Shown here: positions 20,055 through 27,569 of the stretch, one piece after another
Layout: the number at the start of each line of letters is the position of its first letter
Numbering within the stretch: position 1 is the stretch's first letter
Assembly: GCF_000012285.1 (NCBI RefSeq)
Contig: NC_007181.1
Span: 480,001 to 512,000 of the forward strand
From: Sulfolobus acidocaldarius DSM 639
GTDB taxonomy: Archaea; Thermoproteota; Thermoprotei_A; Sulfolobales; Sulfolobaceae
DNA: 32,000 nt
Direction: 5' to 3'
The notes under the pieces: generated by a model
What the model saw: the letters and a program-made list of their open reading frames with translations, nothing else
What the model was told of the DNA's origin: nothing
Database searches by the model: none
Program-made: the position numbers and the translations under genes

Positions 20055-20099
20055 TATGGGCCCGCTGGGATTTGAACCCAGGACCTCCGCCTTGTAAGG
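20055..20099. repeat. attL: displaced copy of the 3' half of tRNA-Val
   Basis: TATGGGCCCGCTGGGATTTGAACCCAGGACCTCCGCCTTGTAAGG is identical over 45/45 bp to 27525-27569. It lacks the tRNA 5' half. Confidence 0.95.
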
Positions 20100-20216
20100 A
20101 CTCTTTTTGTTACCAATTCACGCCTGAGTAACGCTGTAAAGTTACCAAAGTCCAACTTTTTGCACAAAACAACATTAAAATTCTGTATTAAACATAAAAC
20201 CAATCCATGAGATGCG

Positions 20217-21218
20217 TTACCCTTTCAACCCGTTTATAACTGAGCTGATGAACTGCTCGTATTTTTTCCAAAGACCAAGCTCATTCCAGTATAAGCGAAT
20301 GCGGTCCCACAAAGGCTGTCCGCTTCCTAACGCCATACAGCAAGCTATAGTCAACGCTACCTCCACGTTAGGTAACCTAGGTATGCGTTTAGGCGATTTC
20401 TTGAAGAAGCTGAATACTCCATTCTTCTCCCTCTCCTTGCGGACTTCCCTGACCTTCTTGACGAAGAGCGGGTAGAACTTGTTGACAAGATAGTCAGCCT
20501 GGAACTTTATCTCAACATCCGAGATGGATGCGTAGATATAACCAAACTGACAAGGTTCCTCGAGATGGCTGAAGGTCTCTGGCGGAGCTTCAGTATCACG
20601 GGCTAGCGACTCGGTCGCCATGAGCTTTATACTGTCTTCGTTAGTAGAATAGTAAAACACGAGGAACTCGAGGTTATTCTCGTCAAGTCTCTTCTTCGTC
20701 TTCTTAATTCTCCCCTTCGCCTCCTTAAACTTCGAGATATTAATCGGCATAATTAGGGGTACTCTGAATAAGTCCCTCGAGAACTCTGATGGACGTTTAA
20801 GAGCAAAGCTGTCTTTTAGAGACTCAAAGCCCTTAACACTTTCTACTACTTTCTTCAGCTCCCCCTCAACCCCTGCGTCCCCCTCCCAGCGAGATAACGA
20901 CGGGAAGACTTCTTCGAAAAACGCATCACCGTCGAGCAACCCGTCAGTCGTGACGTCCTCCGCTCCTCCTATGCTATCTCCACACACCCACTCACGTTCT
21001 TGCTTCTTTACTACACCCTCTTTATTCAGCTCTTCGAGAACATTATTAATGTGACCCTTAGAGATATATTCATTATACTTTTCCCTGAACCTCTCTTGAA
21101 TATTCTTATATGAAGGGCGTTCTCCCTTAGCGCAGAGCTCTATTACTAATTTCTTTGCAAGCTCCTTTTTCTTTTCATCATCCGTGGCAACTTTCTCGTT
21201 CTTTTTTACGCCAACCAC
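20217..21218 (-). CDS. element-encoded hypothetical protein with an N-terminal winged-helix-like domain
   Basis: 333-aa ORF (GTG start) with a TATA-like TTTAAAATAA about 27 nt upstream. The N-terminus LVIELCAKGERPSYKNIQERF...HINNVLEELNKEGVVKK looks like a wHTH. I recognise no motif in the remaining roughly 250 aa. Confidence 0.7.
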   Translation of the reverse strand: MVGVKKNEKVATDDEKKKELAKKLVIELCAKGERPSYKNIQERFREKYNEYISKGHINNVLEELNKEGVVKKQEREWVCGDSIGGAEDVTTDGLLDGDAFFEEVFPSLSRWEGDAGVEGELKKVVESVKGFESLKDSFALKRPSEFSRDLFRVPLIMPINISKFKEAKGRIKKTKKRLDENNLEFLVFYYSTNEDSIKLMATESLARDTEAPPETFSHLEEPCQFGYIYASISDVEIKFQADYLVNKFYPLFVKKVREVRKEREKNGVFSFFKKSPKRIPRLPNVEVALTIACCMALGSGQPLWDRIRLYWNELGLWKKYEQFISSVINGLKG

Positions 21219-21240
21219 AATTAAAATTCATCTATTTCTT

Positions 21241-21250
21241 TATTTTAAAC
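21241..21250 (-). promoter_or_regulatory. candidate TATA box for the 333-aa gene
   Basis: The reverse complement TTTAAAATA(A) is centred about 27 nt upstream of the GTG at 21218, consistent with a leaderless transcript. Confidence 0.45.
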
Positions 21251-21348
21251 AATTCTCAGATTAGTAGGAATGCCCAACTACATTGAAAAATAACATGTAA
21301 AACTGAGTGGAACACTATAAATTAGAGTTAAGATTCAAAAAATTCGAA

Positions 21349-21436
21349 GAGTTCACTTCAAGTTCACTGTGAGTTCACTCAAGACTTCGACGTTTTCAAC
21401 TCAATCAGTGAACCTCAAATATATATCGAGTGAATT
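21349..21436. promoter_or_regulatory. iteron/operator array: 3 direct (G)AGTTCACT repeats at 11-bp phasing plus 2 inverted copies, overlapping a TATA-like box
   Basis: GTTCACT occurs at 21351, 21362 and 21373. Inverted AGTGAAC lies at 21407-21413 and GAGTGAA at 21428-21434. AAATATATAT lies at 21417-21426, about 28 nt before the probable start of the AbrB-like gene. Confidence 0.7.
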
Positions 21437-21449
21437 AAATTGTAAACTT

Positions 21450-21749
21450 TTGGTGACTGAAAAAACGAAAGAAGTTAGCCAGCTGTTAATTCCAGACTTA
21501 AAGATAAGAAAAACAAATAAGGGCAAAAAGGGGTACGTATATCTTATCCAACTTCCTCAACGTTTTAACAAATTACTAAGAGCTGGGCTTTATGACATTA
21601 CTATAGTCTTAAACAACGGTTCGGAAATTCCTGTAGGGACTAAAAGGGTTTGGATAATGAACGATAGGTTGTGGTTAACCCTGCCAAGAGCGTTAGCAAA
21701 GACTTGGGAGCAAGAAAAAATCGTCGACCTGGTCATAAGGCAAGTATAG
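21450..21749 (+). CDS. small DNA-binding protein, probably AbrB/SpoVT-like swapped-hairpin type
   Basis: Two look-alike segments, YVYLIQLPQRFNKLL and LWLTLPRALAKTW, resemble the AbrB-type (h-h-h-P-x-x-h-x-x-x-L) strand-loop motif. I prefer the TTG/GTG start at 21450/21453 because the track ORF start (21369) lies inside the iteron array, upstream of the TATA-like box. Confidence 0.6.
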   Translation: MVTEKTKEVSQLLIPDLKIRKTNKGKKGYVYLIQLPQRFNKLLRAGLYDITIVLNNGSEIPVGTKRVWIMNDRLWLTLPRALAKTWEQEKIVDLVIRQV

Positions 21750-25558: not shown

Positions 25559-25560
25559 GT

Positions 25561-25578
25561 GTTAACTTTAAAGTTAAC
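25561..25578. promoter_or_regulatory. perfect 18-bp palindrome GTTAACTTTAAAGTTAAC between the TATA-like box and start codon of the HTH gene (candidate auto-operator)
   Basis: It starts 3 nt upstream of the ATG at 25558. TTTATTAT (minus-strand reading of 25582-25590) sits just beyond it. Confidence 0.6.
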
Positions 25579-25600
25579 CCGATAATAAACTTTGAGTCAT

Positions 25601-25620
25601 CTCAGTACAGCTGTACTGAG
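25601..25620. repeat. perfect 20-bp palindrome CTCAGTACAGCTGTACTGAG
   Basis: Self-complementary over all 20 nt. It shares the GTACAGCNGTAC core and the central GC with 24443-24460. Confidence 0.85.
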
Positions 25621-25870
25621 TTCCCCTGAAAGTCGACGCTCTAATATAAACGAGGTGCAAATCGCCTTGGTCAATTTATTTGCTTTTTTGCAACGAGGCT
25701 GGACTCCCCTTGGTTTATGACCACATAGAATTCAGAATGGTGAAAAATATAACATATTAGGGCGGGCATTAGATTGTTCTGAGCGCTAGCGCTTTTGTCT
25801 CCATAAACTCCACGTTCCAAAACGCCGTGATTAAAAAACGCTTAAATGCTCTAAAGCAGAGCTTTAAAAC

Positions 25871-26143
25871 ATGATGGAGTTGAAGCATAAGAAAGAGGAG
25901 TATGCGAAGGAATTAATAAATCTGCTCAGCAGGTTCATGAGCGGTAAGATAAGCTACCCTGTGCTTTCCCTAAGGCTAACAGGCATAGAGGCAAAGGTCC
26001 ATGAGTCAGGCTTTGAGGACTTAGTGAGGCTAATACATGAGCTCCTCAAGGCGATTAGGGAAGCAGAGAGAAAGGGTTCAAATGAAATTAACAAGTTAGT
26101 TAGACCATACGTGGAGAAACTTGAGAGTATTGCAAAGGGTTAG
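25871..26143 (+). CDS. small helical hypothetical protein
   Basis: 90-aa ORF convergent with the integrase (the stops overlap by 4 nt), with element-like codon usage. No recognisable motif. Confidence 0.5.
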   Translation: MMELKHKKEEYAKELINLLSRFMSGKISYPVLSLRLTGIEAKVHESGFEDLVRLIHELLKAIREAERKGSNEINKLVRPYVEKLESIAKG

Positions 26144-27417
26144 AGTATTCTAGGAGCGTGTTTCTCATAAGCGTATCTTAGCTCCTCTTCTGATATAACA
26201 AAGTAGTGCTCCTGCAGGATCCTAAACTGCTGTGGAGGAACTCTACCCTGCAGTATATTCACGACCATTGGTGAAACACCCTGCTTTATCATGTAAGAGG
26301 CAAAGAAGCTCCTCAAGTCGTATAGCCTGAACTCACGACCTAGTACTCTCTTCATAGCATTCTTTATGTCGAAACGCAGTGAATCATCACGGAATGGGAA
26401 GAACTTGTTGAACCATAATGTAACGTCAATTCCTTGCTCAGGGTTAGCCTCTGCCAACTTTTTGACGTTCTCTAAATATCGTGAAACGAAGTCCTCACGA
26501 TAAGGTAAATACACCTCTTTTAACCACTTAGCAGTGTTTTCGTGAAGGAATGTTATGTAAGCCCTCTTAGTCTCGTTCTCCTTCATTAGCTTAATCACGC
26601 GGTGTTCTAGGTCAACCTGTTCCACAGTGAGCGATAAGACTTCACCAGTCCTTAGGCCAGTCTCTGCTAGGACTAAGAAGAATGCCTTAGCACCAATATC
26701 CTGTATATTATTAAATATTCTCTTTAGGATATCAATCGACAAGTTCATGGGCCTATATTTTGTCTTTCCCCTGGGTGTCTTAAATGAGTCGTAGAGTAGT
26801 CTAGCTAACGCAGGGTCTCTTAACTTAACTACTTCCTTAATGAATAATTTTAGTGCTTTGACAGTATGTTCAGCCTTTCCATTACTCTCAGCCATCAGGT
26901 CTAGAATGTATTCCTTTAGGCCTTCAGGCGTTAAAGTGTTTCCTAGGTCAGCTAAAGCGCGCTTCAAGTAGTTTAGCCTATCCTTTGCAGTCTTAGTAGA
27001 TTTGGTCTCTTTCAGCAGTTTTTCGAAAAGCTGAATATCCTCCTGTGTGACTATATACTCCTTTGCAGTCTCTTTTATTAAATCGCCAAAGTACTTATGC
27101 AAAAAGAATAGGAAGATATTCCTAAAGCTAGGATCCTTTGAGGCTTTTACCATTACCCTTAAGATATCTGAAGGGGTAACATCTGAATAATCAATGCCAT
27201 GGACAATTTTAACAACTTCATCAACTGGTAACGCTTTCATTACTTCATTAACGATCTCATCAGGAGGCTCAATCTCTTTACCCCTCTCATCATAGCCCCT
27301 AACGTATAAGTACAACTGCTTCTTACTCCTATTAGTAATTTCTGTGAGCTTAGGATAGCCTAGAAGTTCAACAGCCCTCTTGAGAAGTTCTCTTCTCTGT
27401 TCCTTAGAGAGTTCCAT
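26140..27417 (-). CDS. int: tyrosine recombinase / integrase (archaeal, non-partitioning arrangement)
   Basis: 425-aa ORF. Box I is LAETGLRTGEVLSL, and box II plus the nucleophile is LYDLRSFFASYMIKQG...LQGRVPPQQFRILQEHY. This parallels the SSV1 integrase C-terminus as I recall it (RKFVASKM...IQGRKPTRVLTQHY). The gene is intact, and its start lies 107 bp from attR. Confidence 0.9.
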   Translation of the reverse strand: MELSKEQRRELLKRAVELLGYPKLTEITNRSKKQLYLYVRGYDERGKEIEPPDEIVNEVMKALPVDEVVKIVHGIDYSDVTPSDILRVMVKASKDPSFRNIFLFFLHKYFGDLIKETAKEYIVTQEDIQLFEKLLKETKSTKTAKDRLNYLKRALADLGNTLTPEGLKEYILDLMAESNGKAEHTVKALKLFIKEVVKLRDPALARLLYDSFKTPRGKTKYRPMNLSIDILKRIFNNIQDIGAKAFFLVLAETGLRTGEVLSLTVEQVDLEHRVIKLMKENETKRAYITFLHENTAKWLKEVYLPYREDFVSRYLENVKKLAEANPEQGIDVTLWFNKFFPFRDDSLRFDIKNAMKRVLGREFRLYDLRSFFASYMIKQGVSPMVVNILQGRVPPQQFRILQEHYFVISEEELRYAYEKHAPRIL

Positions 27418-27524
27418 AATATATAGATATCAATATTTGGTATATATTCATTACCAACTTTTCCATCAAACGTTACCCACGTCAAAATCTATGTGAAGAG
27501 AAACCATTTCAATTAATGTAAAAG

Positions 27525-27569
27525 TATGGGCCCGCTGGGATTTGAACCCAGGACCTCCGCCTTGTAAGG
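27525..27569. repeat. attR: 45-bp repeat forming the 3' half of the intact tRNA-Val
   Basis: Identical to 20055-20099. Confidence 0.95.

Follow-up and report, generated by a model that had tools for sequence, protein, structure and literature searches.

A 7,470-bp unit of the Sulfolobus acidocaldarius DSM 639 chromosome, located within a 32,000-nucleotide stretch that we analysed as one window, is very probably a cryptic, non-conjugative plasmid-like element that was integrated at the chromosomal tRNA-Val gene by its own pNOB8-type integrase. Among archaeal integrated elements its type is ordinary, but it carries an orphan replication module and a small protein related to a spindle-virus coat protein. 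An earlier note on this DNA had read it as an integrative, plasmid-like unit inserted in tRNA-Val, and this reading holds: attL and attR are both present, as are genes for an integrase, for a replication module of PrimPol and SF3 helicase, for regulators and for a serine recombinase (Table 1). We detected no conjugation, capsid-assembly or defence genes in the element using Pfam, PHROGs and PADLOC.

Table 1. Features of the integrated element, in window coordinates.
Feature	Position	Strand	Basis
attL: orphan tRNA-Val 3' half, 45-bp core	20055..20099	.	perfect direct repeat
attL-proximal arm, two GTTACCAA motifs (20109, 20141), candidate integrase arm sites	20100..20216	+	motif count; function putative
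ORF333, no assigned function	20217..21218	-	GC3 0.55
ORF126	21369..21749	+	likeness to a small ORF of conjugative plasmids; phrog_14319 E 1.7e-8
Putative stand-alone primase-polymerase (AEP/PrimPol-like), 258 aa	21780..22556	+	PHROG DNA-primase families 2.3e-6, 1.2e-5, 1.8e-4
Replicative helicase, 533 aa: N-terminal CNCPLHPPD motif and D5/P4-type SF3 NTPase	22540..24141	+	DUF5906 E 3.7e-4; TIGR01613 (P4 primase C-terminus profile) 1.7e-5; phrog_864 2.4e-9
Repeat-rich non-coding region, 417 bp: candidate origin and candidate res/operator sites	24142..24558	.	repeats, fold; function putative
Small serine recombinase, resolvase/invertase type: N-terminal catalytic domain, short C-terminal region	24559..25209	+	PF00239 3.2e-35; phrog_125 1.8e-38
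ORF103, putative HTH regulator	25247..25558	-	phrog_16553 'transcriptional repressor' 3.8e-6; weak NCBIfam HTH matches
Four-helix-bundle protein, 90 aa, ATV P131 / RIP / ATSV coat-protein family	25871..26143	+	PF22238 1.8e-11, above cut-off
pNOB8-type tyrosine integrase, intact, 425 aa	26140..27417	-	PF00589 1.6e-12; phrog_5127 1.5e-50
attR-proximal arm between integrase start and core, with ATTACCAA (27450) and GTTACCCA (27472)	27418..27524	+	
attR: core 27525-27569 in the reconstituted intact tRNA-Val(UAC) 27527-27601	27525..27601	-	repeat and tRNA calls

The boundaries are set by a 45-nt direct repeat whose two copies are 100% identical and spaced exactly 7,470 bp apart, just as the earlier note had it. 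This pair is the sole repeat of at least 20 nt within 18000-30000, and by our own arithmetic (~5e8 pairs x 4^-45) about 1e-19 perfect 45-nt matches would be expected by chance in 32 kb. The right copy comprises positions 33-75 of an intact tRNA-Val(UAC) (the 3' 43 nt, including the anticodon, TAC) plus 2 nt downstream. ARAGORN and Rfam (65.6 bits) both call this gene; neither calls a tRNA at the left copy, an orphan half where only an 18-nt sub-threshold match to a tmRNA model appears. GTTACCAA occurs in five exact copies in 32 kb, where 0.99 would be expected, and four of these lie in a 260-bp interval around attL; the two motifs listed for the attR arm are one-mismatch copies in the same orientation. 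In the att arms, motifs of this type are candidate integrase arm sites. The proposed compositional break is also real and clearly marks the element as foreign, both by GC content (0.407 in the element interior versus 0.346 in the left flank and 0.373 in the right flank) and by GC3 (0.40-0.55 in the eight element ORFs versus 0.23-0.33 in eight host genes).

All 24 long S. acidocaldarius contigs that we read carry the element, and aligned copies are identical or nearly so. The earlier note had suggested looking for an empty site and an excised circle, and would have taken an insertion as refuted if all close relatives carried the unit with neither an empty-site allele nor a compositional break at the repeats. 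Neither an empty tRNA-Val site nor a circular junction was found in the S. acidocaldarius assemblies; despite this, the shift in composition and the arrangement of the att sites still favour insertion. An att scan of metagenomes found nothing, and a scan of genomes returned no S. acidocaldarius. Because no empty site, circular junction or further att hit emerged, present-day mobility is presumed rather than proven, and the element could by now be fixed and inert.

These features are consistent with the following history. A circular 7,470-bp form would have carried an attP core identical to the 3'-terminal 43 nt of tRNA-Val(UAC) and 2 further nt, about 105 bp upstream of the integrase gene. Its pNOB8-type tyrosine integrase would have recombined attP with the tRNA gene. 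This would have restored the full tRNA at attR and stranded half a copy at attL while keeping the integrase gene in one piece, in contrast to SSV-type integrases.

The integrase itself is full length and shows the R...YxxR...Y signature, with the motifs TGLRTGE, LYDLRS (YxxR) and EHYFV seen in translation, and is 47-56% identical over 95-100% of its length to the integrases of pRT2, pARN3/4, pHVE14, pAH1, pYN01 and pNOB8. Plasmids of the conjugative pNOB8 family (pNOB8, pARN3/4, pHVE14, pAH1, pYN01 and especially pRT2 of S. tengchongensis) have in common with the element a full-length YxxR integrase whose gene is unsplit on integration, an attP core ~100 bp upstream of the integrase start and an ORF126-like small gene. 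In free pRT2 the geometry is the same, with an attP ~100 bp upstream of the integrase start that matches tRNA-Val at 43 of 45 positions. The integration module is that of large conjugative plasmids. The C-terminal ~90 aa of ORF126 are similar to a small ORF of conjugative plasmids of the pARN3/pARN4/pHVE14/pAH1/pYN01 type (35-37% identity, E 2e-5, tblastn), where it is convergent with the integrase gene, as seen at the pARN3 locus; an AbrB-like DNA-binding role for ORF126 is conceivable. In the element, by contrast, the gene convergent with the integrase 3' end is a P131/RIP-like ORF. The element also differs from these plasmids in size (7.5 kb versus 25-42 kb), in having no conjugation genes and in its unrelated replication module. 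ORF333 gave no match in Pfam, PHROGs, NCBIfam, PADLOC or PDB, and no tblastn match in plasmids or phages.

No relative of the replication module was detected among known plasmids or viruses (tblastn against plasmid and phage collections). Its 258-aa ORF had no Pfam match, and hhalign comparison with Prim-Pol domains was not significant; weak profile hits and the motifs FYDIDN (DxD), SGHGAH and RLPGTLNCK suggest a PrimPol. The helicase gene overlaps it by 17 nt in a different frame. An exhaustive HMMER search with the helicase yielded 73 matches at E<1e-3, and all ten that were scanned with Pfam contained DUF5906, several together with Pox_D5 or D5_N and two fused to Prim-Pol. The helicase Walker A motif reads GPPRGGKD, with D at the usual S/T position, a substitution that could impair ATPase activity. 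The nearest relatives, and the only detectable ones of the module as a unit, are two uncultured metagenomic contigs, L009 (ENA ERZ27237252 k141_118541) and L017 (JAEHJW020002085.1), in which Rep is likewise split: a small ORF, a 216-aa PrimPol (32% identity; E 4e-14 for L009, where the three motifs are kept) and an overlapping 513-aa helicase with a CNCPxHPPD motif follow one another as in the element. Since this order recurs, we regard the split Rep as ancestral and not as a recent frameshift. The contigs differ in having no integrase, tRNA, resolvase or P131-like gene; their GC is 43-44%, and their remaining genes are unannotatable except for one DEAD-box helicase.

When free and circular, the element would rely on its own PrimPol and SF3 helicase for replication, which would probably start in the repeat-rich region 3' of the helicase gene. 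This candidate origin contains direct and inverted repeats (D3, D6, D9, D16, I2, I4 and I5) and a ~100-nt stem-loop at 24191-24290, whose ssDNA fold (-23.2 kcal/mol, z -3.7) was equalled by none of 200 shuffles. The pRN1 origin stem-loop similarly sits downstream of orf904 (PMC4234260).

Could the element be a deletion derivative of a pNOB8-family conjugative plasmid that, once integrated at tRNA-Val, shed its genes for transfer and maintenance and kept only the integrase end and unrelated cargo? Only the integrase and the ORF126 C-terminal domain have known Sulfolobales plasmid relatives, both conjugative, and the same tRNA-Val att is used by pRT2. However, both att sites are perfect, the unit is compact, its replication module is its own and recurs elsewhere as a unit, the other six ORFs lack any conjugative-plasmid match by tblastn, and the element holds no TraG/TrbE-like remnants or pseudogene debris. 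We consider this origin unlikely and retain that of a compact plasmid-like element.

The earlier note had listed no capsid-like gene, a claim that does not quite hold. The 90-aa ORF fits the family (PF22238) of ATV P131, a coat protein, ATV ORF145/RIP, an RNA polymerase inhibitor, and the ATSV D135 coat protein. It matches PDB entries 3FAJ (9.6e-7), 5EQW (9.6e-6) and 7OQ4_Z (0.018), and its AF2 model (pLDDT 91.8, four helices) superposes on all three structures, which are also its top three Foldseek matches (3FAJ, 7OQ4_Z, 5EQW; TM 0.73-0.75). Family membership of this protein, SACI_RS03025 of DSM 639, was already pointed out in 2016 (PMC5123050). It consists of the four-helix core only, without the RIP C-terminal tail, which is essential for RNAP binding (PMC5123050, PMC8448823), and without coat-protein extensions; C-terminal extensions are found in most family members (PMC5123050). 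The P131, RIP and ATSV relatives reside in viruses, whereas this gene resides in a plasmid-like element.

Such a gene might point to a satellite or plasmid-virus hybrid resembling pSSVx, which is packaged into helper-fusellovirus particles; packaging and spread would then depend on a tailed spindle virus (Bicaudaviridae-like), with the P131-family protein as the link to the helper. We know of no tailed spindle virus of S. acidocaldarius, however, and no other ORF of the element matches any virus in the phage collection searched. With the C-terminal extensions missing as well, we find this dependence distinctly improbable. A degraded provirus left over from a larger spindle-shaped virus that had integrated is very improbable, even though the coat-protein-family gene adjoins the integrase and the tRNA and Sheppard et al. 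suggested that this gene came from a virus (PMC5123050): the 7.47-kb unit enclosed by the perfect att repeats is compact and its replication and resolution genes are of plasmid type, other virion genes are absent and no ORF is truncated, and the integrase groups with plasmid integrases, its only viral relative being that of APSV1 (31% identity).

As a chromosomally integrated cryptic plasmid of ~5-8 kb that combines primase-polymerase with SF3-helicase chemistry and has, downstream of rep, a stem-loop as its candidate origin, the preferred plasmid-like element resembles small integrated pRN-family plasmids (pXQ1 of S. solfataricus P2; pST1 and pST3 of S. tokodaii). The earlier note pointed to pXQ1 as a pRN-like element; pXQ1 is similar in size and integrated at a tRNA-Val. 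Identity with pXQ1 or another integrated pRN-family plasmid can be dismissed, as the host is S. acidocaldarius, whose genomes encode the exact proteins, and as integration of pXQ1 splits its SSV-type integrase into int(N) and int(C) (PMC8371274), whereas the integrase here is intact and pNOB8-type. Nor does the broader link fit: besides the conjugative-type integration module, no CopG, PlrA or pRN-type Rep was detected (Pfam; tblastn against the Reps of PLSDB plasmids), the sequences show no similarity to pRN-family plasmids, and Rep is split, whereas pRN plasmids carry a fused ORF904-type Rep with orf56 and orf80 (PMC4234260).

The second recombinase has a YARVS motif with the catalytic Ser, and its best plasmid matches are the resolvases of Thermococcus pT26-2 and pAMT11 (33% identity, full length). 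These Thermococcales integrative plasmids belong to hosts of another phylum and differ in their SSV-type integrases and unrelated replication proteins. The pT26-2 family also pairs a tyrosine integrase with such a resolvase, which would make the combination of two recombinases not unique. The resolvase would most likely act on multimers, resolving them at repeats that closely precede its gene, where three TTCATGGC(G/T)AAT-like repeats (24480-24555) are candidate res or operator sites. Two palindromes of the form GTGTTAAC-N7-GTTAAC(A/C)C (D2/I1), at 25263-25285 and 25559-25581, flank ORF103; they are candidate operators, at which the small HTH protein would control transcription.

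The element integrated at the tRNA-Val gene is a mosaic, combining the integrase and att sites of a conjugative plasmid with an orphan, split PrimPol-SF3 replicon, a resolvase and a four-helix protein of a spindle-virus family. Its ends are as the earlier note claimed: the two copies of the 45-bp direct repeat are 100% identical and lie 7,470 bp apart. An intact tRNA-Val(TAC) (ARAGORN; Rfam) sits at the right end, such that the right copy spans tRNA positions 33–75, in the 3' half of the gene, and two bases further downstream; the left copy is an orphan part of the tRNA. No other repeat of at least 20 nt was found in 18000–30000; as 45 bp alone are repeated, a larger segmental duplication, raised in the earlier note as a check, is ruled out. 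The compositional break described there is also real, with a GC content of 0.407 in the element interior versus 0.346 and 0.373 in the flanks, and a GC3 of 0.40–0.55 in the eight element ORFs versus 0.23–0.33 in eight host genes. Core housekeeping genes flank the element on the left (L21e, Rpo4, KsgA, proteasome) and on the right (the aCPSF1/FttA termination factor), and Rfam found no RNAs besides tRNAs.

Features of the element and its left neighbour (window coordinates)
Feature	Coordinates	Strand	Length	Observations
attL (left repeat)	20055-20099		45 bp	orphan tRNA part
PrimPol	21780-22556		258 aa	AEP motifs DxD, SGHGxH, RLPGxxNxK; weak PHROG primase matches
helicase	22540-24141		533 aa	CNCPLHPPD motif; D5/P4-type SF3 NTPase (predicted)
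serine recombinase			216 aa	PF00239 (3e-35); YARVS catalytic motif; repeats adjoin gene upstream
90-aa ORF	25871-26143		90 aa	PF22238 (RIP/P131), 44.6 bits vs cut-off 27
integrase	26140-27417	minus	425 aa	PF00589 and phrog_5127 matches
attR (right repeat)	27525-27569		45 bp	in tRNA-Val 3' half
tRNA-Val(TAC)	27527-27601	minus		intact
89-aa ORF	19432-19701	minus	89 aa	SSV1 D-335 integrase N-terminal part (PF07935, 1.2e-20)
tRNA-Leu(TAA)	19438-19522			overlapped by 89-aa ORF

Tyrosine integrases of the pNOB8 type carry the signature R...YxxR...Y, and those of the SSV1 type R...KxxR...Y (PMC8371274). In translation, the element integrase has the former, read as TGLRTGE, LYDLRS and EHYFV. Its ORF is uninterrupted and the att core begins 107 bp beyond the start codon; a pNOB8-type integrase gene is not disrupted by integration, as its attP is situated outside the coding sequence. 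The protein is 47–56% identical, over 88–100% of its length, to the integrases of pRT2, pARN3/4, pHVE14, pAH1, pYN01, pNOB8 and related plasmids (E 1e-109 to 8e-140), and its sole viral relative is the APSV1 integrase (31% identity). Signature, intact gene and full-length similarity, the three marks of the type, are all present in the element, and mark the integration module as bona fide pNOB8-type. The same geometry of att core and integrase recurs in pRT2, a free 29.5-kb plasmid of S. tengchongensis, where a 43/45 match to the att core lies ~100 bp upstream of the integrase start; given this match to tRNA-Val, pRT2 should target the same tRNA gene. On pRT2 (NZ_CP146017.1) the tRNA-Val-like attP is located at about 5300–5345.

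Four GTTACCAA-like motifs in the same orientation flank the att sites, two exact (20109 and 20141) and two with one mismatch each (27450 and 27472), and are candidate arm sites for the integrase. About 220 bp to the left of attL, at 19873–19940, the attL junction recurs in degenerate form, with CCTTGTA followed by GTTACCAATTCGCG and then AACGCGTAAAAAGTTACCAAA. This form is colinear with 20093–20150, its single matches being short (E 0.6–1.6), and might have been left by a related integration event that took place earlier at tRNA-Val.

The element works in the manner of the small cryptic plasmids found integrated in Sulfolobales, yet cannot be placed with pRN or pXQ1, and is best described as a further archaeal integrative plasmid. 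Of the earlier note's reading, the integrative-plasmid class thus stands, and the pRN-like, pXQ1-like identity does not. Despite its pNOB8-type integration module, the element is not a conjugative plasmid of the pNOB8 family: those plasmids have a conjugation cluster (TraG/TrbE-like ATPases and others) and measure 25–42 kb, whereas the element has eight ORFs in 7.47 kb, none of which matched transfer proteins (Pfam, PHROG), and only its integrase and ORF126 match these plasmids at all. Members of the pRN family share orf56 (CopG), an orf904-type Rep in which PrimPol and helicase are fused, and orf80 (PlrA) (PMC4234260), and the SSV-type integrase gene of pXQ1 is divided by integration into int(N) and int(C) (PMC8371274). 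Pfam detected no CopG, PlrA or PF09250 in the element ORFs, and the Rep ORFs had no tblastn match among PLSDB plasmids. The earlier note's link to pXQ1, from S. solfataricus P2, was mistaken, as the exact element proteins sit on S. acidocaldarius chromosomes; this host, the type of integrase (intact rather than split), the lack of CopG, PlrA and Rep similarity and the division of Rep into two genes together rule out pXQ1/pRN identity. Current concepts of archaeal mobile elements are unaltered by the element.

Exact copies of the integrase, helicase and L21e proteins are encoded on S. acidocaldarius chromosomes including GCA_001481595.1 CP013694 (2.22 Mb), GCA_028472365.1 CP046615 and many LPxx entries, and window positions 17001–31000 are 100% identical to several assemblies of the species. 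All 24 long S. acidocaldarius contigs read contain the element, and the empty tRNA-Val allele that the earlier note proposed to look for did not turn up among them. The seven other genomes returned, mostly Sulfolobales MAGs, do not share the synteny around tRNA-Val, so that no cross-species empty site can be defined, and a scan of metagenomes with the att pattern gave 0 matches. The element looks intact but fixed. The data covered show no sign of active mobility, an absence with which low-level excision would be compatible. Two incidental points concern the records: a scan of species-representative genomes with the att pattern missed S. acidocaldarius, a sequence that NCBI assemblies do contain, and the stretch may be masked in the representative set; and contig LPSU01000004.1 stops within ORF333, near window position 20886.

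The putative PrimPol gene is followed by the helicase gene, which overlaps it by 17 nt in a different frame. PrimPol matched PHROG primase families (E 2e-6 to 2e-4) and nothing in Pfam; profile–profile comparison (hhalign) against Prim-Pol domains was insignificant (probability 0.5%), and a single-sequence AF2 model was unusable (pLDDT 37). Its candidate catalytic motifs are conserved with a homologue on the uncultured metagenomic contig L009 (ENA ERZ27237252 k141_118541). The helicase matched TIGR01613 and phrog_864, with a Pfam DUF5906 match below the cut-off. SF3 helicases are P-loop NTPases with Walker A, Walker B, motif C (S/T-x-N) and an arginine finger; the YLSAN and FYDRAE stretches of this protein align, and it is placed in the D5/P4-type SF3 helicases, with the Walker A GGKD as a caveat. 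This Walker A (residues 313–320, window 23476–23499) reads GPPRGGKD, with Asp in the usual Ser/Thr place after Lys, and that of P0003, the nearest helicase relative, is the canonical GSTGKS; the Asp may alter or impair the predicted ATPase.

A word-indexed search of 5.8 billion proteins returned the helicase itself alone, and HMMER, run exhaustively over 1.84 billion representatives, gave 73 matches with E<1e-3, just three of them below 1e-10, making the helicase nearly an orphan. Relatives from the HMMER scan that were run against Pfam were all DUF5906-type (10/10), several with Pox_D5 or D5_N; a Pfam Prim-Pol domain was fused in 2/10, and several had a CPFHPPD motif. The best full-length relative, P0003 (513 aa, 32% identity), is encoded on L009 and on a second metagenomic contig, L017 (JAEHJW020002085.1). 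Its gene comes immediately after a 216-aa PrimPol gene and overlaps it; that PrimPol shares 32% identity with the one in the element and is preceded by a 52-aa ORF. We considered whether a recent frameshift had split a fused Rep. This is ruled out, since two overlapping genes are likewise present in the nearest relative, an arrangement that is thus conserved; moreover, the helicase frame is closed just ahead of its TTG start. The two contigs, of 8.4 kb (L009) and 12.1 kb (L017), are 99% identical to each other, have 43–44% GC and carry the sole relatives of the split module. They also encode a DEAD-box helicase; nine of ten other ORFs tested had no Pfam match, and the tenth had a sub-threshold Glutaredoxin match. 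They are probably from an undescribed archaeal plasmid or virus.

Gene calls in the public assemblies CP013694.1 and LPRL01000001.1 suggest a decayed PrimPol, split by a ~34-bp indel. Decay is ruled out, as the insert consists of AGATGTGTATAAGAGACAG plus N (window about 21897–21903; about 9322–9361 of L005, and also in L003 and L002, stretches of such assemblies) and produces false frameshifted calls of 181 aa plus 44 or 58 aa. We take AGATGTGTATAAGAGACAG to be the Nextera/Tn5 mosaic end, which makes the disruption an assembly artefact.

A 417-bp non-coding region 3' of the helicase gene is dense in direct and inverted repeats and, as single-stranded DNA, would fold into a ~100-nt stem-loop (z -3.7). 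The experimentally defined origin of pRN1 has a similar stem-loop downstream of orf904 (PMC4234260), and by analogy we infer that this region may be the replication origin of the element.

The serine recombinase has its closest plasmid-borne relatives in the resolvases of Thermococcus pT26-2 and pAMT11. These plasmids presumably also carry a tyrosine integrase, in which case the pairing of integrase and resolvase has a precedent. Immediately 5' of the gene are three TTCATGGC(G/T)AAT-like repeats, and multimer resolution would be the most economical role for the enzyme. ORF103, bracketed by two palindromes of the form GTGTTAAC-N7-GTTAAC(A/C)C, is from its sequence a probable HTH repressor. In pARN3-type plasmids the integrase gene is faced by a convergent small ORF, which the C-terminal domain of ORF126 resembles; ORF333 has no detectable relatives. 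Six of the eight element ORFs, including ORF333, PrimPol, the helicase, ORF103 and the 90-aa ORF, had no tblastn match in PLSDB and INPHARED; IMG/VR held no relative of the element, and a search of the element for defence systems gave no matches. Between ORF103 and the 90-aa ORF lie 312 bp of non-coding DNA with no Rfam match and with the perfect palindromes CTCAGTACAGCTGTACTGAG (from 25600–25620) and GCGCTAGCGC (25784–25794).

The statement in the earlier note that the element has no capsid-like gene is not strictly true, as the 90-aa ORF matches a coat-protein family, PF22238, and its structures. By sequence, the protein matched PDB entries 3FAJ (ATV P131), 5EQW (ATSV major coat protein) and 7OQ4_Z (RIP); a single-sequence AF2 model has four helices (pLDDT 91.8), and Foldseek ranked the PDB entries 3FAJ, 7OQ4_Z and 5EQW as the three closest to it (TM 0.73–0.75). 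Sequence and modelled helical bundle agree in assigning it to the RIP/P131 family. A word-indexed search returned the protein itself alone; one source lists it as SacRon12I_03080 in S. acidocaldarius Ron12/I. Sheppard et al. (2016) had described this cellular homologue, as SACI_RS03025, near integrase and tRNA genes, and suggested a viral origin for it; no other cellular copy of the family is reported (PMC5123050). RIP needs its C-terminal tail (residues 114–145) to bind RNAP (PMC5123050, PMC8448823). The 90-aa protein stops at residue 90, after helix 4, and the lack of this tail makes RIP-like inhibition of RNAP unlikely. We also considered, as a long shot, that the element is a plasmid–virus go-between for tailed spindle viruses, with the 90-aa bundle serving either in packaging of the 7.47-kb circle by a helper bicaudavirus, as in a pSSVx-like satellite but for another virus family, or as a dominant-negative decoy of coat protein or RIP that shields the host. 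The decoy version could account for the element's intact state in all the S. acidocaldarius strains read.

Among Crenarchaeota, S. acidocaldarius, with a genome public since 2005, is the chief model for genetics, and it is regarded as carrying unusually little mobile DNA. In every strain read, the integrative replicon is complete and appears undamaged. Its tRNA-Val-specific, non-suicidal integrase with defined att sites could serve as a genetic tool, and its orphan PrimPol/SF3-helicase replicon could seed new vectors. The cellular P131/RIP copy helps to ask how a coat protein turned into an inhibitor of RNA polymerase.

A different integration left its mark beside the element. The 89-aa ORF, whose C-terminus is encoded across tRNA-Leu(TAA), matches the N-terminal part of an SSV1 integrase. 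No second tRNA-Leu repeat was found in 18000–30000, so the rest of the SSV-type element appears lost, and the ORF is the int(N) footprint of a past SSV-type integration at tRNA-Leu.
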